From the NCBI GenBank assembly GCA_014905635.1, contig JABVCE010000016.1, positions 496,001-560,000 of the forward strand: a stretch of 64,000 bases of DNA. The letters run 5' to 3'. This stretch comes from Scenedesmus sp. PABB004 (Eukaryota). Shown here piece after piece: positions 37,129 to 50,739 of this stretch. The notes beneath the pieces are model-generated. The model was given only the letters and a program-made list of their open reading frames with translations, was not told the DNA's origin and made no database searches. Position 1 is the stretch's first letter. Every line of letters starts with the position of its first letter. A program made the translations under genes and the position numbers.

Positions 37129-37556
37129 TGACACCCTGGGCCGCGCGCGCTGCACGTGTCGACGAGAGTAACAGTTCTGGCGCCGCCCTTGCACGCCGCC
37201 TGCACAGCGTGCGCCGGCAGCGCTGACCGCGCGCAGCAATCTTGAGAGCTGCGCCCACAAGCCAGGCCACAACTCAGACCACCCAACAGGCCGCCAGGTT
37301 CGCCGTTGCCACACCGACTCGTAATGCAGAACGACCACAAAATGCAAGGCGCCGCCGCTCCCACGGTTCGGGATAAGTTGAGCCGCAGTGCCGCGCGTGA
37401 TCATGATCGCGCCCCGCAAGCGTTGCCCACATGGTGTGCCCACCTTCGACGGCCCACATCAGTGCTGCAGCCCGCAAACGCTCTGGTCAGGGGTGGGTTG
37501 GGGTTGCTAGAGCGGACCGGCGCACTAGTCAAGAGGAGCCGCGCGCCACTCACACG

Positions 37557-39133
37557 TCAGCACGCGCCGGCCGAGGCCCACACGCAGGCACCCCTGCCAT
37601 CGTACAGCGCCACCCGCCCGCCGCCCACGGCCTCGACCACCAGCCTGAACGGCCGCGCATGCCCCGCGAGCGCGCTGGCATTGTACATGCCCCGAAGCGC
37701 GGCGCCGGTGCTGTCCCGCACTGCGCGGCAGCAGCGGGCGGCGGCGGCGGCGGCAGCGAGGCTGAGCGGCGGGGCGCGCGGCGCGCCGGGGGGCGCGGCG
37801 GGCGGCGGCGGCGCCCGCGGGCGAGCGCGCCGCGCTCTCACCGCGCAGCAGGCCGGAGGCCGCGAGCGTGGCCGTGAAGGGTCCCTTGCTCGACGCGCGG
37901 CGGATGCCGTTGCCCCAGAGCTTCACCAGCGATCCAGGCGCGCACGCGACCGAGCCGTCCGCGGGGCACACCTGCCGCAGCATGAGCTCACCCGTGCGCG
38001 CGACACCAAACTGCAGCCGCGGGTCGTCGGGACAGCACCAGCGCACGTCGTTGCCACTGTCCGAGTGCAGGCTCGCGCCGGCGCGCAGGATGCTCTCCTC
38101 CGCGGGCTCAGGGATCTCCTCGCCGGGGCTGGGGCTGGGGTTGGGGCTGGCGCGCGGCGGCGCGGGCGAGGGCGAGGGCGGGGGCTCGCCGCCGGTGGGG
38201 CGCAGCACGTTCTCCCTGAAGAACGGCGTGATGTTGCCGGGGGGCTGGTAGTTGCAGACGACAAAGTCGGCGGCCTGGTCGCCCCACAGCGCGAGCTGCG
38301 GGCAGGTCGTGATCCAGCACCCGACGCGCGTCGTCGACTTCCACACGAGCGCCGTGAAGTGCCCGGCCGCAGGGTTCCACACGGCCGCCGCGTAGTCGTA
38401 CAGCTTCTCCTCGCTGTACCACGCGCCGACGGCCCAGTCGAGCGTCTTGGCAAACGACTTCATGCCCGCCGTCATGCACGCCAGGTTCTTGCGACGGCGG
38501 CGGCGCGGCGCGCGCGCGCGCGCGCGGAGGGTCGGCGCCTCCCCGGCCGGCGCCGCGCCGGCCAGCCCGGCTGAGACCGCCGCGCGCGCGGGCCGGCCGA
38601 GCACCCGCACGGCACGGGCCCCGCGCTGCGCCGCGCCGCACCTGGCCGTACTCGTACTTGTTGGTGTCGTGCTCCCACCGGCACTTAAGCGCCACCCTCT
38701 GAGCTTGCTCCATCAGGTAATCGTCCCACTGGGCGGCCGGGCGCGCCCGCGAGGCAGGGCGCGTTTGCGGGCCGCGCGGGATGGCGCGGCGGGCGCGACA
38801 CGGTGCGCGGCTCGGCGCGGGAGCGCCCCCCCCCCCCATTGAGCCCCGCACCTCTAGCGCGGGCGAGCCGTGGAGGCGTCGGTACGCGTTGTGCTGCGCC
38901 ACGATCGCGGTGTAGAGCGCCGGCGGCGCCACCGCGGGCGCAGCGCCGGCGGCGGATGCCGCGGCGGCGCCGGATGCCGCGGCGGCCGCCTGCTCGGCCG
39001 AAAAGTGCGGCGGCGGGTAGCACACCGCGCCCGTGGGCTCCGCTTGGCGCAGCTCGCGCGCGGCGGCGACGGTCATCGCGGTGAGCAGCAGCGCCGCCGC
39101 CTCGCGGCGGAGCGGGTGGTGCCTCGGCGCCAT
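37557..39133 (-). CDS. Secreted CAP/SCP (PR-1-like) protein with Ser-Pro linker and C-terminal bulb-lectin-like domain
   Basis: Signal-like AAALLLTAMTVAAA; HNAYRRLHGSPALE|WD; YGQ|NL; AVGAWYSE; GHFTALVWKSTTRVGC; FVVCNYQPPGN; PPPSPSP linker; tail SILRAGASL...GELML...LW...SGLLR|VRDSTG...VALYDGRGACVWAS. Confidence 0.88.
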
Positions 39134-39952
39134 GCCGCGCGCCAGCCCGACGTGTGCTTCTGCTGACGCCTCGACACTCACGCGCGCTGCACGGCCACGC
39201 CTGCGGGCAGCGCAGCGGGCCGGGGCGGGCGATTGCAAGGTCGCGGCGGTGGTGCCGCACTGCTCGACGCCCGACGCCGTCCTGTACGGTCGTGAGCCTT
39301 GCCACGATGCTGTGAGCTTTCCACGGCGGCCAGCAAGCCACAGGGCCCCGGCTCGCTCGCTTTGGGTGCCCGAGAGTACTCGCCGGTGCCGTGCGCCGCG
39401 CCTGCTGCGCTGCACGTCCTGCCCGTGGCGCAGGGCGCTCACCCAGGCAACGTGCTTCCAAGGAAGAGTCAGGGCACTGCGGGGCTGAGGCTGCAGCAGA
39501 GATCGGCGCGTCGGTGCGGCGGCAGGCCAGGGGGAGGGCGCAGGTCGGTCGCTTGTGCGAGACCAGAAGCGCCTGAGCTGCTCCCGCGGCGGCGCGTGAG
39601 AACCCCCGGCGGCAGGCCGCCGGGCGCGCCGACGCTCCGCCCGCGCGGCCGCCGCTGCGCGCGCGCCGGAGCCAGCCGCCGGCCTGCCACGCTTGGTGAG
39701 CTTGGTGTAGCTCTGAACGCGTGCGGTGAGCTCGCCGCCAGCTCAAGGCCGCGGCCGCGCGCACGGGGGCCGGTGACCCCTGCAACGCAATCGGCCTCCC
39801 CCGCGCCGCTGGCTGCACTGACGCCGTTCGGCCGCGCTTAAAACCTCCGAGCCTCTCTTATTATTATGATGAGCTCGGCAGAACAGGCCCTGGATGCGCC
39901 GCCGAGCCGGGGCGCCGGTCGCGGCGAAGTCCATTGCGAGTCGGCTCCGGCC

Positions 39953-40189: not shown

Positions 40190-43100
40190 ATGGCCCGCGC
40201 GGCGTGCGGGAGCCGGCTGGTGCTGGGCCTCGCCCTGCTGGCCGCCGCGGTCGCGGGAGCGCAGGCGACGAACGGCACGGCGTGCCGGTGCACGGGCTAC
40301 CAGATCCCCAGCATCACCGACTGGCTCTGCACGCCCTGCGACGAGTCGATCTCGCAGACGTTCACGCCCGACCCGTGCTGCACCGAGACGGCGGGCTGGC
40401 AGTGGCGGACCGCGGCCTGCATGGTCAAGTACCGGTGGGAGGCGCTGGTCGCGGCGCAGGGCATCGGCGGCGCCGCGGACTTTCTCGAGATCGGGACGGC
40501 CAACCGCACGATCCAGCTGACCAAGACCGCGCTGGGCTGCCTGTGCGACGCGTACGCGATCGCCACCAACAACGTCAACATCACGATGCCCGCCACCGAG
40601 TCGCCCAAGCGCAGAGCGTGAGTGGGCGGGCAACGCGCGCAATGCACGTGCAATCCACATGCTCGGCGGGTCCAGCGTGTGCGCCGCACGCTCACACGCC
40701 CCGCCCGTCCGCGCAGCGACCCCAAGGCGGGCTGCCCGGGCAAGGGCCGCAGCAAGCACAACGCCGCCGACGACCCGGACGAGGAGTGCCTGCTCAAGAC
40801 GTGGCGCGTGGGTGGCCTCAGCAGCCTGCCCGGCTTTACCGGCTGCGACGGCTGCTGGGGCCGGTGCAACAGGGCCACCGGCGCCTGCCCCAGCTCCAGC
40901 TGCCAGGCCAACATGCTCGGCACGGAGGAAAACTCCTGCCCGCACAGCGCCAACGTGAGCGGTGCCGCGCCGGCTGCGGCGGCGTGGCTGGCAGCGCGCG
41001 GCACCGGGCAGCAGCCTCCGCAGGGGCGCCACGTGCGGCCTCGCCCACCGCCCGTCCCCGCCCCGCGCGCAGTGTCCCGTGGCCGGAAAGGGCGCCACGT
41101 GTGAGCCTCTCGTTCAGAGCTGCGCCGGCGACAAGTGCCTTGGCACCGTGCGGTGCGGTGCCCACAGCGACTGCGGCGAGTGGGAGGGCGTCGCGTGCTT
41201 CTTTGACGGCGCCAGCGACAACTGGAAGGTCTGCTCGTCGGACGCCTGCACCACCGGCCCGGCGCCCGCGGCCACCGACTTCCCAGACGCCTGCACGCTG
41301 CCGACCTGGTACAACTACACCGTTCCAGCCGGCCACCAGGGCCCCGGCTGCAAGACCACCAGCGGCGGCGCCTGCACTCACTGCGCCGGCAGCTGCTGCC
41401 TGGACAACGGCACGTGGTGAGCGAGCGCCCCCGCGCGCGAGCCGGTGCCCGGCCGCGGCCGCGCGTTGGCGCGCCCGGGCTGACGAGCGCCGCCGCCGCC
41501 GCCGCCGCCGCCGCAGCCCCACCAGCAGCTGCGTCGCCAATGGCCTCGGCACCGACTCTGCGACGTGCCCGCGCTCTGACAGGCGCGCCCACCGTGCAGG
41601 ACAGGGGGGGGGGGGGGGGCTGTCAGCTTGCCGCGCGCAGCCGTCGCCCCCGCCGTCCCGCGAATGCATGCCGACCGCCGCTCCGGGCGCAGGTGCCCGC
41701 TGAAGAATGGCGCCCAGTGCGTCAAGGCCGCCAACTGTGGCCAAAACGTCGACAACTGCCTTGGCAAGGTCCACTGCAACGGCAACGGCTGCCCGGGCTG
41801 GGAGGGCTCGCCCTGCTTTTACCTCGGGAGCAGCAACGTGAGCGCGCCCCCGCGCCGGCAGCACGCGCTGGCGGCGGCGCGGCGCCGACGCCCCGCCCCC
41901 GCCTGGCCGCCGCGCCCGCCGCGCCCGCCGCGCCCGTGGGATGCGCACAGAACTGGAAGGTCTGCTGGGACCCTGCCTGCGACGCCGACGACGGCAAGGC
42001 CAAGGACAAGGCCGCCGTCGTGGACAAGTGCTCGGGCAAGGTCGGCGCGCGCGGCGACGCGCTGGCCTGCAACTACCCGAGCTGGCGCCTGCGGCCGGAC
42101 TTTAGCGGTGTGTCGCTGGCAGGCTTCCCCGGGCGCTGCACCGACCTGGGCGGCCCCACAACCAACGAATCAGCGTGCATCGGCAACTGCGACCCGCTCG
42201 GTGTGTGCAGGTCCAGCAGCTGCGTTGCAAATGCTCTTGGAGATATGGAGCTCTCCTGCCCGCATTCGGCCAACTGGTGAGCACGTGCTCGGCGTGCACA
42301 CCGGCCCCGGCCGCACGCAGCGGCGGCGGCACGGGCCCGCGAGGCGCATCAGCGCCGGGCTGGCCCGAGCACCGCCCCCGCCCGCCCGCGCGCGCGCAGC
42401 CCCGTGCGCGACGTCGCCGGCGTGGAGTGCAAGGCGACGGCGGGCTGCGCGGGCCCGCACTGCTTCGGCTGGGTCAAGTGCCCCAGGGAGACCTGCGTCG
42501 TCGACGGCGTCGAGTGGCACGGCCGGCCGTGCTTCTACGACGGCCTGTCCCGCAACTACAAGGTCTGCGTGTCGCCCAAGTGCGACGAGCTGCAGCGCCG
42601 CAGCCCCCTCGCCACGTCGGGCACGGGGACGCGCAGCATGCCGGCGCCGGCGCCGGCGCCCAAGCCGCCCGGCCGGGGGCGGCGCCCGCGCGCGCGCCCG
42701 CGCGTGCTGCTGGCGTCGGGCGGCCGCACGCTGCTGACCAACACCAACGTCAAGGGCCGCGGCAAGGGCCTGGCCGTGGCAAAGCTCAAGAAGAGCTTCC
42801 CCAAGGCCGAGGTGCGCACGCGCTCTGTCTGAATGGTCGCTGGGGCCGGTCCGCAGCCCGCAGATGCCGTCGTGCTGCCCCCCCCCCCTTGCGCCGCCCA
42901 CGCCGCCGCGCGCGCCGCGCCTCGCGCGCCGCCGCCGCCGGCCAGGTCGACAACATCTGCGGGCTCCGGACCAACCCAAACGACGCGAGCGCGCCGTCGC
43001 TCGAGGACCTGGGCGGCGAGGCCTTCCTGCGCACGGTCGCGCTGAAGCTCTCGGTGCTCAAGGATCGCATTGAAAACAAGGCCTGCGAGGACGCGGGCCG

Positions 43101-46100
43101 CACCGTGACCTACCTTGACGAGCTGGTGAGCGCGGCGCGGCGCCGCGCGCCGACAGCGCCACGCACCCGCCCGCCGGGGCGGCTCGAGCCGCCGGCGCCG
43201 CCGCGCGACGCGCGACGCGCGCCGCCGGCGCCCGCGCCCGCACGTCGCAGGCGATCAGGGCGGTCAACGGCAGCGGCGCCGCGCCAGAGTGCGACTGTTA
43301 CACCGCGTCGTTGCTCCTGCGCGCGCTAGACGCAAACCTCGCCGACGTGACCGTGGCCGCGTCGTCGGTCTCGGCCGAGCTCGGGCTGCCGCTCGACTGG
43401 TGCACGTTTTGCGCGGAGATGGTGCAGCAGCTCTCGCTCGCCGGCTTCACGCCAGCCTCCACCGGCCGCCGCCTGCTCGGCGTCACGCCCGCGGGCGCGG
43501 GCGGGGGCGCGCGGCGCCTGCTGGAGGTCACGTCAAACGGCTACATCATCCTCGATGCGACCCTCGGCGACGCGCAGTGCACGGTGGGCGAGGCGGCGCA
43601 GGCGACGGCCATGCTGGTCTGCGATGCCGGCGCTGCCGCGCGCTGTGCGCCGCGCCGCGCACCGCGCCGCCCGCGCGGCTTGCGCCCCCGCCGACGCGCA
43701 GCGCCGCGCCGCGCCGCCCGGCGCGCAGGCCGTGGCCAACGTGGAGTCCAACTTCAGCGTCCCGGCGGCGGCGGCCGCGGTGGCGTCGTCGCTCGCGCTG
43801 GCGCCGAGCCCGAGCGCCCACGAGCCGGTCGACACGGCAATAACGATCACGGCCACCTACCAGGAGGGCACGCCGCTGGCTGCCGTGGCGGGCCGAGCCG
43901 TCCGCTTCACCATCGTTTACAGCGGCGGCGGCACCGCGACGGTCAACGCCACCACCAACGCCGCTGGCACGGCGAGCGTGCAGCAGCTGACGCGCAGCGC
44001 GGCGGAGCACGCCAACGTCACGGCCGCCACGACCGACAGCCAGGGCAACGCCGTGCGGGCGACCACGAGCGTGGATTGGTTTGGCACGCACACACTTTTG
44101 ATCAACGTGCCGGCGCCGACCACGCGCACGGTGGGCGAGGCGGCGCAGGCGTCGGCCAAGCTGGTCTGCGCTGACAGCGGCCCCGGTGTGGGCGCCAACA
44201 TCAGTTTTACCTTCTCGGCGCCCAGCTCAGCCACTCTGACGGCTTCCTGCCTCACCAACGCGGCCGGCAGCTGCACCGCTGTCGTGCCTGCGAGCGCGAC
44301 GGCCGTCACGCTCGCCACCCAGGCATCGACCACCAACGCCTGCGGCCGCGCGGCGGCCATCCCCGGCACCTGGACCAGCAGCCAGCCCAGCATCACGTGG
44401 ACGGCACCCGCAGCGCCCTCGTCGCCCCCGTCGCCCCCGACGCCCCCGTCGACCCCGCCGCCCCCGACGCCCCCGACGCCCCCGCCGCCACCACCGGAGC
44501 ATTCCTCCCCGTCGCCGGCGCCCGCGCCTGCCGATGGAGAGGACATCCCAGTAATCGCACCGACCCCCAGCCCATCGCCCGCACCGCAGCCCTCGCCCGC
44601 GCCCGAGCGGCCCCCGGGCCCGCCGGCGGGCGCTGACCTGGCGCTGGCGCTCGCGCCCGCGCCTGCGCCGCGCGTGCGCGTGCGCGAGACCATCACGGCG
44701 ACGGCGCTCCTCACCTCAGGCGGCGCGCCGGTGGCCGGGGCGCCTGTGAGCTTTGCCGTGGCCTTTGCTGACGGCGCGACCACCGCCTACACGCGCACCA
44801 CCTCGGCCGCCGGCGCGGCGAGCCTGGAGCTTCTGCAGCCCTCGCCGCGCAACGCGACCGTGGCCGCGAGCGCGGCGCTCGGCGGCGCGGCGGCGTCCGC
44901 GGCGCCCCTGGCGCTGGAGTGGGCGGCCGACGGCGAGCCGATTGAGGCCACGGGCGGGCAGGAGCTGCTGCTCTCGGTCCTGGACCCGCTGGTGCAGGTC
45001 GGGAGCCAGGCGGCCGTGCAGTGCTTCTACACAATCGACGGCAGGCCCCAGGCGGGCGCGCTAGTCAGCTTTGTGCTGACCCACCCCGACACAGGCGCGC
45101 CCGAGGGCCGGACCTACTCGGCGCTCACAGACGCCCTCGGCGTCGCGCGCGTGAGCGTAGACGCGAGCGCCGCGCCGCTCGTGCGCGCGCCCGCGTGCTC
45201 GGCGGGCGAGACGCGGCACCTGCTCAACGCGGGCAGCAGCCGCACGATCCGCTGGGCGGAGCGGCGCCTCGCGCTGACGACCGACAACGCCCGCCTGCCC
45301 GCCGGCGTGGCCGCCAACCTGTGCGCGCGCTTCGTCGAGGATGCGGCGCCCGCGGTCGGCAGGGCCGTCACCTTCAGTGTCGCTTGGGCCGACGGCACCA
45401 GCGACACGCCCGTGGCCACGACCGACTCGCGCGGCGCCGCCTGCGTCCCCCTCGTCGCGCAGCGCGGCGGCGACGCCGCGACCGTGACGGCACGCGCGCC
45501 CGGAGCCGACGGCGGCGCCGTGCGCTCGGTGTCGCTCGGCCTCGGCGCCAGCCCGGATGGCGCCGCGACGGCGGTCAGCTGGTACGGCGAGCGGCAGGAC
45601 AGCCTCGTCGTCGTCGTGCTCACGCCTCGCGTTCCCATCGGGGAGCCTGCGACAGTAGAGGCGGAGATGCGCGACGGCGCCGGCGCACCGCGCCCCGGGG
45701 AGGAGGTGACCTTTCAGCTCTCCGACCTGCTCACGGGCGCGCCGGAGGGGCCGACGCTGAGCGACACGACTGACGCGGGCGGCCGCGCGCGCGTCGACAT
45801 CGTGCTGGACGGGGGCGGCCGCAAGAACGTGGTCGTCACCGTGCCCGACCCCGAGACGGCGCTGCCCCTGACCGCGTTCAACGACCCCAGCGGCGGCGGC
45901 GGCGGCGACGTCACGTGGTCGCGCGAGCTGCTCACGCTGCGCCTCGCGCCGAGCGCGCGCGTGCGCATGGGCACGCCCGTCACGCTGTCGGCGACGTACG
46001 AGGAGGACGGCGCGCCCGTGGCCGGCGCGGCGGTCAGCTTTTCGGTCGCCTTCTCTGACGGCACGCACGACCTGCGCACCGCGTCGACCGACCGCCACGG

Positions 46101-47974
46101 CGTCGCTGCGTTGTCGCTCGTCCAGCCGCTGCCGGCGCTCGCACGTGTCGTCGCGCGCGTGACCAGCAGCCGCGGCCACGTCCGCAAGTCGGTGTCGGTG
46201 GGCGACGGCGCCGCCGCAGGCGGGGACGCCACCACGGTGGAGTGGTACGGGGACGCCTCTCCGCCGTCGCCGTCGCCTGCGCCGGTCAAGGGCCCGGAGC
46301 TGCTGCTCTCGCTGCAGCCCAGCGCGCGCGTGCCGGTCGGGACGCCGGTCGTCGTGGCTGCCCAGTACACCGACCTCGCGGGCACACCCGTGGTCGGCCG
46401 GCCTGTGGTGCTGTCTGCGGCGTTCACCGACGGCGCGACGCGCACCGTGCGGCGCCGCACCGACGCGCAGGGCCAGGCGAGCATCACGCTGGTCAGCCCC
46501 ACCATCACCGTCGCCAAGGTGGGCCGCAGGGTTCAGGGTTGGGGCCGGCGCGGCGCGCTCGCCCGCCTCGCGCCGCGGGGGCTGCGCCCGAGCTGCCGGC
46601 CCAGCCGGGTTGAACCCGCCCGCCTCGATGGCTCGCTGCCGCAGGTGACCGCCTCAGCCACCGCGTTTGGCGGCAAGCTGCCCATCTCGAGTACTGGCAC
46701 GCAGCTGACATCCCTGACCAAGGTGCGGGGAGGCGGCGGCGCCGGCCGCCCGCGCCGTGGCTGCCCGCACTCTGGCTGCCCCCGGCCCCTGCCGGCCGGC
46801 GCGGCGGCTCGGTGCTGCTGCCGGCTCGGCGGCCCTGCTGGGCAGGCGGTCACGCCCCGCCCGTCCGCTGTGCGCCGCGGCTTGTACACAGACTGTTGAG
46901 TGGTTTGCACCAGAGGTCAAAATCACCTCCGCAAGCTTCAGAGCCTCCCTGCTGCTCACCAAGGCCGTCCCCATCGTCGAGCTGACCTGCGCCTCGCTCG
47001 CGCGCACCGGCCTCGACGCCGCGCTCGCCGCCGGCGTGCAGCAGGACGTGTCGGCGTGCCTCGCGGCCAAGTCGGCCAAGCGGGCGCTGCCGAGGCGCAG
47101 CATCAGCGTCACACCTGGCGCGTGCGTCGACCAGGTGCGCGCCGGGCCCCGGCCGACCTGCCCGCGCGGCGCGGCTGCCCTGCGCCACAGCCGCCGCCGC
47201 CGCCGCCATCGCGCGCTCGGCTGAGCCCCGCCCGCCGCGGCCCGCCCCTCGCGCGCGCAGGGCGCCGACGGCGTGTCGGTGTGCTTCACCGTTAGCATTG
47301 ACGGCGTGAGCGCAGACCTCGAGGCCACGCTCCGCGCCGCAGTGCGCGAGCTCAGCACCGAGCTCACCGCTGAGACCGTGTGCGGCGTGCTGGGGAAGAC
47401 CTGCGCTGTGCTGCACAACAAGCTCGTCCACGTCGCCGGCAGCTGCGCCGCGCGCGCGGCGGCGGGGTGCTGCACGCCCGCGGCCTTCCCGCCGACCCCG
47501 GGCGGCCCGGGCGGCGTCTGCCCGCTCGGCCCCGCCGACGCGCGGCCCGCCGCGGGCGCGGTCCCCTGGACGGGCACGGCCGTGCCGGTGCCCGGCGGCA
47601 GCTGCACCGTGCTGTCCTGCGACGTGCTGCGCGGCGACGCGTGCTTCCCCTTTGTTGCTGACATCACGCAGCAGTCCAAGGTCGTCGGCGCCGCCACGGT
47701 GTCGTGCGTGGGCGGCAAGGTGGTCGGCTCCTTCGCCGCCGCGCCCGGCTTTGCGCTCTCCAACGCGCGCGTGCAGTCGGTCTGCGGCGAGGCGCCGACG
47801 TACTGCCCCACGCGCCTGCAGCACCGCCTGAGCGTCGGCGGCGGCGCCGCCCGTGCGGCGACGCCGCACTCCGCGCCGCTCGCGGTCACGAGCGCCGGCG
47901 ACGGCGGCTGCCTATGCCCGGATGGCTGCGCGCCCTTCATCTGGGTAGACGCGGACGTGGCCGCAGAGTGCTGA
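40190..47974 (+). CDS. Large secreted protein: 3 Cys-rich repeats, 8 bacterial Ig-like (Big_1/invasin-type) repeats, Pro-rich linker, Cys-rich C-terminus
   Basis: Signal peptide MARAACGSRLVLGLALLAAAVAGA; three SSCxANxLG...CP and CxGxVxC...WxGxxCF...N(W/Y)KVC units; eight about 100-aa repeats with PxxGxxVxF...T(D/N)xxGxA...VxW. The junctions checked join in frame to TGA 47972-47974. Confidence 0.8.
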
Positions 47975-49199
47975 GCGCGCGGCCCAGCGCGCCGGGCTGT
48001 CAGGCGGGACGAGGCGCGCCGCAGCGCGCTCGCTAGTGAACAGGAGCCGAACAGGGGCGGGGTGTGTTGGGCGGATCCAAATATCAGAGGCGGCGCCATG
48101 TGCGCGGGTGGGAGCCCCGCCCGCGGTGGGAACATGTGGACGGGCGGGCGGCCGGGGTCGGCGTATTTGTGTACTGCACTGGCTGCATCGTTGTTTGCAG
48201 CTCAGCACAGCGGCGGAGAGACCCTGCACTGAGCTGGCGCTGGCGCTGGTGTGCTCAAACCCATGAAGCGTGAACCCTAGTCAACCTAGTTAAGGCAGCA
48301 CGCAGCGCGCACGTGGCGTGCATTCGTCGGTGCGCACTGTCAAAGCGTCAAAGCACTGCACGTCCCTTCCACCCAGGCATGGGTCATCCCCTCGCAACAC
48401 CACCTTCCTTGGGCTGGGCGCTGCACACAAACCGCGCTGTGGGTTCAGCGCTGGCGTCACTGAACCCGATCCGGCCCGCAGCAGCTCCATCCATGCCTTG
48501 AGCCTACATCGACGCTCGCTCACTCACCTCTCACTCGCCGGCACTCACTCACTCACTCGTCTCTCACCAACTTGCACCACATCTCACTCAACGCCGGACC
48601 CTCGGCCCCGCAGTGGGGCCGCCCACCACACGTCCCCCATCCCTGCACCCACACGCCGGAGCGGTGGCCGCAGCAGCCGCCCCCGGCAAACTGCACTCCG
48701 AGAGCCTCCTCGCGCGTTCTAGAATGCACCTGCTTGTTCGCCGAACCGCGGCGCAGCCACCTTATCCGCTGGCGCCGTGCCTCCAACGCATGGCACCATT
48801 GTTCTGCACCCTTCTCCTGTGATAACAGCCTCGCAGCAGCACAACTTCAAACACGCGCCCGCCTTTGATCGGGCGGGCGGCGCGGGGGTGTGTGCGCGTT
48901 GACCAGATTGAACCGCAAGGCGCCAACTGGCGAAAAGGTTGGTTGGTATTTATTGGCGCGGCGGTCGCTGCCGCGTGTAACTTCAGCGGTCTCCGAGCCG
49001 CGGCCGCGCGCATGCGCAGCTGCGGTGCCCCGCGCTGCCGTGGTTCAGGGCATGGCACGCCGTTGCCGCGTGGCTACTGGCTCGTCGTGGCGCACGTCCT
49101 GACTCGCTGCAGACGCTCCCAGAGCGAGCCCAGGGCAGCAGCCGCCTCGCTGCAGGCGCCCGCGCAGCAGCAACAGCAGCGGCTCCGCGGCTGGCGGCG

Positions 49200-50739
49200 A
49201 TGCGCTCCTGCCCCGGCTCGGCTGCTGGAGTGCTCTCCAGCGCTCCCTTACACCGCCACAGCTGTTGGTGGGGCCGCGGCAGCAGGAGCAGCGGCGGCGG
49301 CAGCAGCGGCAGCAGCGGCGGGGGCGCAGCGGCAGCGGCGCCGCGCCGCAGCTCAGGCCGTGCCCCAGGCAGCGCAGCGGGAGCGTGCTTACGAGCCTAC
49401 CGCGCCGCCGCCGACCCCGTGGTGTCCACGGCCTGGCTCGCGGCGCGGCTCGGCGACGTCGCGGTGCTGGACGTGCGCGGCGAGGTCACAACGGTCGCCG
49501 CGGCGCCCGGCGAGGAGGAAAGCAGCTACGCCGCCGCCTACGCGGCCTACCTCGAGGGCCACGTCCCCGTGCGCGGCGGCGCAGGGCGCAGGGCGCACTG
49601 CGCGCTGCCGGGCCGCGGGCAGCCAGGGCCGCACGCCGCACGCCGCAGGGCGCGGTGTTCTGGGACTGGACGGCCACCGCCATCGACGCCGGCGCGGGCA
49701 CACCGCTGCAGCTGGAGACGGCGCCCGACCTGCTCGCGGCGGCGCTCGAGGCGAAGGGCGTGGGCAGCGACCGGCCGGTCGTGGTGCGGCGGGGCGCCGC
49801 GCCGCGCGGCCCCGGCCCCGGCCCGGCCCACGCGCACGCCTGGGACGCGCCGCCACGGCCCGCCGCCCGCGCGGCGCGGCCGGCAGGTCTACGACGGCGG
49901 GGACGGCATGCTCGCCGCGCGGCTGTGGTGGAGCCTCACGGTCGCTGGTCACCCCGAGGCGCTCGTCCTGGAGGGCGGCTGGGCGCGCTGGCGCGCGGAG
50001 GGCCGCCCCAGCGAGCTGCACGAGCCCTGCACTCTCAAGGCGCGGCGCGGCGGGGGAGGCTGGACGCTGGCCGCCGCCGCCCCTCGCGCACGGCCGTGCG
50101 CTGGAGCGCCGCGCCCGCGCGGCCAGCTGCCTGGCGCGCGACCGCGCGCCCGCGCGCCGCGCGCCGAGAGCAGGTGTACGCCACCTTTGAGGCAGAGATG
50201 CAGCCGCAGCTGCGCGCGACGCTGGACGACGTGGCCGCCATCGTGCGGGGCGAGCAGCAGCAGGGGGCGCTGCTGCTGGACACGCGGTCGGCGGCGCAGT
50301 TCAACGGCGAGGTGAGCCGCGGGCCCGGCGGGCTGCAGCCGCGCAGCGCGCCGTCCAAGGGCGAGCGGCGCCCACCCTGCCGCCCGCCGACCGCCGCGGC
50401 CGGGCGCGCCAGGTGCGGCGCGGCCCGCGCGGCGGGTGCGTGCCGGGCGCGGTCAGCCTGCCGCGGCCCGCGCTGTTGGGTGACGCGGACGGGTGGTTCA
50501 AGCCGCTCGCCGAGCAGCGCCGGCTGCTCGAGGCCGCGGGCGTGGTCTTCCCAGGCGACGGCGACGGCGGCAGCGGCGACGGTGCCGCCGTCGTCGCGTA
50601 CTGCAACGGCGGCGTCGCAGCGTGCACCGCCGCGCTCGCGCTGCACCGCCTCGGCCACCGCCGCTGGGCGGTGTACGACGGCTCATGGAACGAGTACTCA
50701 CGCGCGAGCGAGCTGCCGGTCGAGCGAGCGGAGCCGTGA
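49200..50739 (+). CDS. Two-domain rhodanese / sulfurtransferase (SseA/TST/MPST family)
   Basis: VVSTAWLAARL..VLDVR; YLEGHVP|GAVF; VV|VYD; AARLWWSL; VLEGGWARW; LLDTRSAAQFNGE; VVAYCNGGVAA; AVYDGSWNEY. Confidence 0.93.

Follow-up and report, generated by a model that had tools for sequence, protein, structure and literature searches.

A mobile disulfide-rich domain outside the family catalogues in a predicted giant surface protein of Scenedesmus sp. PABB004 and its relatives

The window analysed here, 64,000 nucleotides of contig JABVCE010000016.1 of Scenedesmus sp. PABB004 (G000:C9:496001-560000 in a 40-Mb assembly), contains a forward-strand gene at 40190..47974 for a giant protein of 2098 amino acids (aa), in which three Cys-rich units are combined with a row of Ig-like repeats. 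Judged by sequence, this is a real and conserved gene family that carries an uncatalogued mobile domain; the overall protein design is of a known kind, and the Cys domain is new to the catalogues searched. We put the probability at about one half that the product is secreted and is a modular glycoprotein of the wall or cell surface, built as a "binding tip on a stalk" in which the disulfide-rich domain forms the tip. This reading is suggested because the two ends of the protein are conserved while the stalk changes in length and in type, and because the Cys domain is often N-terminal in unrelated secreted proteins.

The Cys domain occurs three times in the protein:
40841..41249 (+): Cys domain 1, aa 185-281, spanning intron 2; AlphaFold model
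41370..41980 (+): Cys domain 2, aa 322-417, spanning introns 3-5
42161..42583 (+): Cys domain 3, aa 478-577, spanning intron 6

The initial annotation had described three Cys units, each followed by CxGxVxC, WxGxxCF and N(W/Y)KVC, and all these motifs are present. A hidden Markov model (HMM) built from 14 single-domain homologues, without rows from the window protein, its paralogues or Tetradesmus, scored units 1, 2 and 3 at 69.9, 55.7 and 57.1 bits, the best of 500 shuffles reaching 7.6. With a profile of 8 sequences, 75 proteins were found at E<=0.001 (23 at E<=1e-10) among 1.84 billion; they are mostly exon-sized metagenome fragments, and at least one (P0067) aligns to the linker part of the profile only. 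Haematococcus lacustris KAL6746008.1, which carries the domain, supplied the one named organism among 20 matches looked up. The domain is also found singly in small proteins of 200-350 aa and, by eye, directly after the signal peptide in P0028, P0031, P0040, P0046, P0050, P0052, P0055, P0070 and P0072. Pfam partners were detected in 7 of 29 scanned homologues (TSP1 in two, SdrD_B, disintegrin, beta-helix, Big_9 and a sub-threshold VWD); the VWD-bearing homologue is presumably diatom-like. Of 43 near-complete copies, which were picked by an HMM that itself includes these columns, at least 40 share 11 Cys and 36 have a twelfth; Gly246 never varies, and at least 41 retain Ser204, Gly268 and an aromatic residue at 273. 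The unit is a self-contained mobile domain of ~95 aa, and its predicted structure is a confident one.

No family in Pfam, NCBIfam or PHROGs covers the unit, and neither its sequence nor its AlphaFold model matched a PDB entry, although a missing fold match does not show a new fold. Six accessions of carriers of the domain were not mentioned in the literature searched. The initial annotation, which could assign the repeat to no known family, was thus supported as far as the catalogues go. The repeat is, however, a widespread mobile domain that occurs well beyond the giant protein. It is a possible though doubtful alternative that the domain has diverged from one of the known families of small disulfide-rich domains and escapes these searches, in line with the poor scores that small Cys-rich domains with few strands obtain in fold searches.

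Three full-length paralogues of the same layout are found at C5:869-900 kb, and the Tetradesmus obliquus protein P0091 (WIA17591.1, 3037 aa) aligns in every region, with 46-56% identity in the Cys units. WIA17591.1 and A0A383WCX9 of T. obliquus represent an orthologue with the same layout, and MNEG_6122 (P0003) of Monoraphidium neglectum is a relative that shares the linker and the three Cys units, of which the first is truncated, here on Big_9/cadherin-like repeats; in UniRef all three are uncharacterised "Big-1 domain-containing" proteins. In a tree, each unit groups with the same-numbered T. obliquus unit (support 95/91 for unit 1, with P0004 in the group, then 99/97 and 98/88), so that the triplet is old and has been kept in order. 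Within the C5 cluster (G000:C5:869000-900000, L010-L015) one paralogue lies forward and two lie reverse, and the last exons of two paralogues are nearly identical, which suggests recent duplication or conversion. T. obliquus also encodes P0093 (WIA11284.1), which is Pro-rich and 4172 aa long and carries the Cys domain six times, beside other Cys repeats of no assigned family.

The stalk of the window protein is encoded as follows:
43789..44400 (+): Ig repeats 1-2, Big_1-like
44401..44631 (+): Pro/Ser/Thr-rich stretch after Ig repeat 2, aa 1049-1125, HRGP-like, with inferred glycosylation
44632..46906 (+): Ig repeats 3-8, Big_1-like

The Ig region is the sole part of the 2098-aa protein with a Pfam match (Big_1, PF02369; E 6e-26, 90.8 bits against a cut-off of 34.9), and six stretches pass on their own. 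With anchors at aa 900, 1000, 1182, 1291, 1389, 1505, 1611 and 1735, the eight Big_1-type repeats of the initial annotation are confirmed. An HMM built from these same eight repeats counted 8, 7 and 9 in the paralogues (one repeat being weak, at 10.3 bits) and 17-19 in five T. obliquus records. The stalk thus varies from 7 to 19 repeats across copies while both protein ends stay conserved. Other Big_1-like domains lie in unrelated genes of the assembly, at C6:~1002000, C37:~181700, C8:~155500 and C77:~653300 (L020-L023); by eye, the one on C37 follows a subtilase-like C-terminus and the one on C6 a Cys-rich segment with RRLL/RALL.

The regions at the two ends of the chain are:
40190..40264 (+): signal peptide, aa 1-25, probably cleaved (hydropathy; similar N-termini in a paralogue and in T. 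obliquus)
40271..40594 (+): Cys-rich N-terminal domain, aa 28-135, shared with all three paralogues and, at 42% identity (E 4e-26), with T. obliquus
46907..47392 (+): segment of weak conservation ahead of the C-domain, aa 1786-1905; an 80-aa alignment to T. obliquus has 30% identity (E 1e-7)
47393..47974 (+): Cys-rich C-terminal domain (C-domain), aa 1906-2098, with 15 Cys and a Cys-stop end, 43% identical to T. obliquus

Over the whole chain, the Kyte-Doolittle mean in 19-residue windows exceeds 1.6 at the N-terminus only. This supports the earlier view of a giant secreted protein with a signal peptide (called by hydropathy and by eye), and likewise that of a Cys-rich end free of a transmembrane helix, the chain ending in Cys with no second hydrophobic segment and no hydrophobic tail. 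The last exon, which encodes the C-domain, is 60-65% identical to the paralogues. The N-domain had no match in Pfam and the C-domain none in Pfam, PHROG or PDB-sequence searches; together with the linker, these domains are probably absent from all family libraries searched.

Between the Cys units and the stalk lies a conserved linker with RxLL-type motifs on both sides:
42701..42736 (+): first RxLL pair, aa 617 and 625, putative S1P-type cleavage sites
42755..43427 (+): linker domain, aa 635-772, mostly helical, with a CxC motif and amphipathic helices
43467..43523 (+): second pair, RRLL, aa 786 and 801

The linker is 53-54% identical to that of T. obliquus and is also present in P0003 and P0008 of Monoraphidium. 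Its amphipathic helices have partial heptad character, and aa 630-825 hold an odd number of Cys (7), one of them beyond the second cut site; in this it recalls disulfide-linked oligomerisation domains such as that of matrilin, and also chains that are cleaved yet stay linked, as described for Chlamydomonas CAH1 (PMC4809292). RxL[LQ] flanks the linker on both sides in the window protein, in all three paralogues and in T. obliquus, whose 3037-aa orthologue has the motif just twice, at the same two flanks. These motifs, conserved in position, fit the specificity of S1P, given in the available part of PMC8310232 as R-X-aliphatic-Z with RRLL as the best sequence. The assembly contains an S1P gene (G000:C1:2413940-2415220; MBTPS1_4th, E 3e-20), a candidate for the processing enzyme. 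The proposal that RTLL and RRLL are processing sites therefore appears likely, given the conservation of the flanks in T. obliquus and the paralogues.

Such cleavage would also suit a polyprotein, in which S1P-type cuts free the N-terminal Cys fragment to act in solution, as an antimicrobial, lectin, anti-grazer or signalling effector, and the part with the Ig repeats and the C-domain acts separately. In all four copies, as in T. obliquus, RxLL separates the Cys units from the remainder of the chain, RxL[LF] stands just before the Cys domain in P0023, P0024, P0028, P0031 and a metagenomic gene (L024, described below), and small secreted single-domain forms exist. Yet the repeated fusion of the domain to different stalks in unrelated proteins is easier to explain if it stays attached, and cut chains can remain joined by disulfides, as in the case of Chlamydomonas CAH1 (PMC4809292, in the portion available). 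We consider a polyprotein unlikely.

The tip-on-stalk reading draws further on the occurrence of the Cys domain on differing stalks, Ig or Big_9/cadherin-like, in relatives. Fibrillar adhesins consist of a binding tip, a repeat stalk and an anchor, and they resemble the window protein in having an Ig stalk of variable length (here 7-19 repeats) between conserved ends and tip domains that occur on different stalk families. They differ in that the window protein is eukaryotic, its tip belongs to no catalogued family and has putative binding only, and hydropathy reveals no anchor. On the tip-on-stalk reading, the protein would enter the secretory pathway and its Cys domains would form about six disulfides each; the Golgi subtilase S1P would cut RxLL on both sides of the helical linker, which, by helix packing and disulfides (CxC, amphipathic helices, 7 Cys), may hold the pieces or several chains together. 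The Ig repeats would act as a spacer of about 35 nm in the window protein and about 80 nm in T. obliquus, at ~4.5 nm per Ig domain. The conserved C-domain, without a membrane anchor, would bind the wall or another subunit, and the Cys domains would have an extracellular ligand, for which a glycan or glycoprotein of the wall or mucilage is most likely, and would serve in cell-cell or cell-surface attachment or in cross-linking of the wall.

Several observations weigh against this proposal. Hydropathy reveals neither a transmembrane helix nor a hydrophobic tail that could serve as a surface anchor. The model of the T. obliquus linker shows helices that are confident over ~50 residues only, with a poor predicted TM-score (pTM 0.37), and had no significant fold match. 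Shuffles of the flanks gave P values for RxL[LQ] of 0.006 and 0.003 in the window protein and of 0.015 and 0.13 in T. obliquus, for flanks that were picked after the motifs had been seen. RxLL also arises by chance, since two more copies (aa 1320 and 1556) lie inside the Ig region of the window protein, and Monoraphidium P0003 and P0008 have no RxLL after the linker. Cleavage on both sides of the linker could detach the Cys tip from the stalk completely. Finally, six peptides checked from a maternal-wall proteome of S. obliquus match none of these proteins; that proteome, by the part of the report available (PMC11839794), assigned <0.1% of its spectra.

Likeness to a known algal filament protein suggests another function. 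Chlamydomonas MST1, according to the available sections of PMC11015965, is a secreted chlorophyte protein of ~2000 aa with nine Ig-like domains, a disulfide-rich domain and a poly-Pro stretch, which forms a filament in mastigonemes. The window protein might similarly be a structural building block of filaments outside the cell, such as bristles, a spine coat or wall fibrils, with its Cys domains and linker polymerising and its Ig rods projecting or packing along the fibre. It is made of comparable parts, shows no membrane anchor and has a possibly oligomerising linker, four copies are present in the 40-Mb genome, and bristles of up to 200 um are described on coenobial algae (PMC10598416, in part). 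In MST1, however, the order is Ig, then Cys, then poly-Pro towards the C-terminus, the Ig type of the window protein is Big_1, and no sequence or fold match between the two was found. PDB searches with the Cys domain found no sequence or fold match to any entry, its single copies in proteins of 200-350 aa suit a binding module better than a polymer core, and no sign of bristles was seen for this strain. A filament subunit therefore seems improbable to us. The gralins and scale-associated proteins of Scherffelia are likewise glycoproteins on the surface of a green alga, with disulfide links and with extracellular parts that resemble bacterial ones; compared by description, in the available text of PMC4494055, the gralins are type-2 membrane proteins of 750-1070 aa, whereas the signal peptide of the window protein seems to be cleaved.

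The initial annotation had called the protein invasin-like, a label that finds support in the stalk only. Invasin and intimin, bacterial inverse autotransporters, share the tandem Big_1 (PF02369) stalk, whereas the window gene is eukaryotic, with 12 introns, disulfide-rich domains at both ends and putative proprotein sites. No outer-membrane beta-barrel family was found in Pfam or NCBIfam, the N-terminal 800 aa consisting of Cys-rich domains and the helical linker; for a C-type-lectin-like tip, sequence searches of the C-domain in Pfam and PDB gave no match. A true invasin-like factor for entry into or binding to host cells could draw on the Big_1 repeats, on the three further copies on contig C5 and on the origin of Scenedesmus sp. 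PABB004, which we take to have been isolated from a ciliate. Such a role is very improbable: free-living T. obliquus has full-length orthologues with a longer stalk, no invasin barrel or tip family was detected, and matches to intimin are weak (E 0.18-0.3).

The Cys domain probably extends to giant viruses. A metagenome scan revealed an intronless gene for a 229-aa protein (L024:9995-10684) with a signal peptide, RSLL, a Cys domain and TSP1, on a contig of 45 kb and ~36% GC. Its neighbours encode a SET protein, UDP-glucose dehydrogenase, an HNH nuclease, ornithine decarboxylase, a Dam-type methylase and a peptidase-S74 protein. For two of three unnamed neighbours, IMG/VR contains related loci (4 and 2, of which two lie in giant-virus bins), and for the third it contains none; no viral hallmark gene was seen on the contig, and scans of IMG/VR found no Cys-domain gene. 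The contig is nevertheless probably of giant-virus origin. The C-terminal ~50-aa segment of its protein recurs in P0028, P0031, P0052 and P0055 and has no Pfam match. A wider proposal combines these elements and is, as a whole, unlikely to hold: the Cys unit would have a disulfide-rich fold not seen before and would serve microbial eukaryotes in general for recognising surfaces, shown by Sphaeropleales as triplets on Ig stalks that assemble via the linker into wall fibrils or bristles, and captured by giant viruses as a small protein, either secreted or part of the virion, with which they bind host surfaces or imitate them.

The gene itself comprises 13 exons in a single open frame, from the ATG at 40190 to the TGA at 47974:
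40190-40617, 40717-40954, 41073-41416, 41517-41582, 41693-41837, 41951-42276 (+): exons 1-6
42400-42811, 42946-43125, 43251-43583, 43729-46518, 46645-46722, 46892-47134, 47261-47974 (+): exons 7-13

The 12 introns (99-169 nt; 11 GT-AG and one GC-AG) are short in a window of ~79% GC, and their junctions were placed from splice signals and homology. The database protein P0001 of Scenedesmus sp. PABB004 (2436 aa, named STR1) matches the large exon at 100%. This NCBI model departs at three places and otherwise agrees: it leaves out the 66-nt exon 4, ends intron 9 at a different acceptor, and continues by splicing into the rhodanese gene downstream, hence its name of sulfurtransferase. The fusion (window 47974-50739) is an annotation error; the rhodanese gene has its own ATG at 49200, all three paralogues stop at the same Cys-stop, and the T. 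obliquus orthologue ends there too. A C5 paralogue contains exon 4, has introns at matching positions and fixes the position of intron 9. The initial claim of one gene is upheld by the 13-exon frame and the orthologues of the same layout, and orthology supports a single transcript for the Cys and Ig parts. In general, the observation made in the initial annotation was confirmed and its interpretation was supported in part; the listed parts are all present, and the N-domain (aa 28-135), the helical linker (aa 635-772) and the Pro-rich stretch (aa 1049-1125) had been missed.

The GC-AG intron (window 41583-41692) corresponds to a GT-AG intron at the same place in the C5 paralogue. Intron 9 starts with a 54-nt, 91% identical copy (43579-43632) of the downstream coding sequence 44126-44179, which may be left over from an Ig repeat that was duplicated in part. 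The neighbouring genes encode Sec16-like, CAP, rhodanese and Erv26-like proteins, and no tie to the giant-protein gene was seen; the CAP/PR-1 family gene (window ~37400-39140; Pfam CAP E 1.5e-8) is on the minus strand, pointing away from it.

The wall, bristle and adhesive-surface proteins of Scenedesmus-type algae, which matter for colony formation, grazer defence and harvesting, are largely unidentified. The family described here provides a conserved, named candidate with testable cut sites, and the analysis sets right a public gene model in which the protein bears the wrong name of a sulfurtransferase. Its ~95-aa extracellular module is common to green algae, other eukaryote-like sequences and probably giant viruses, and is a target for structure determination and ligand screening.

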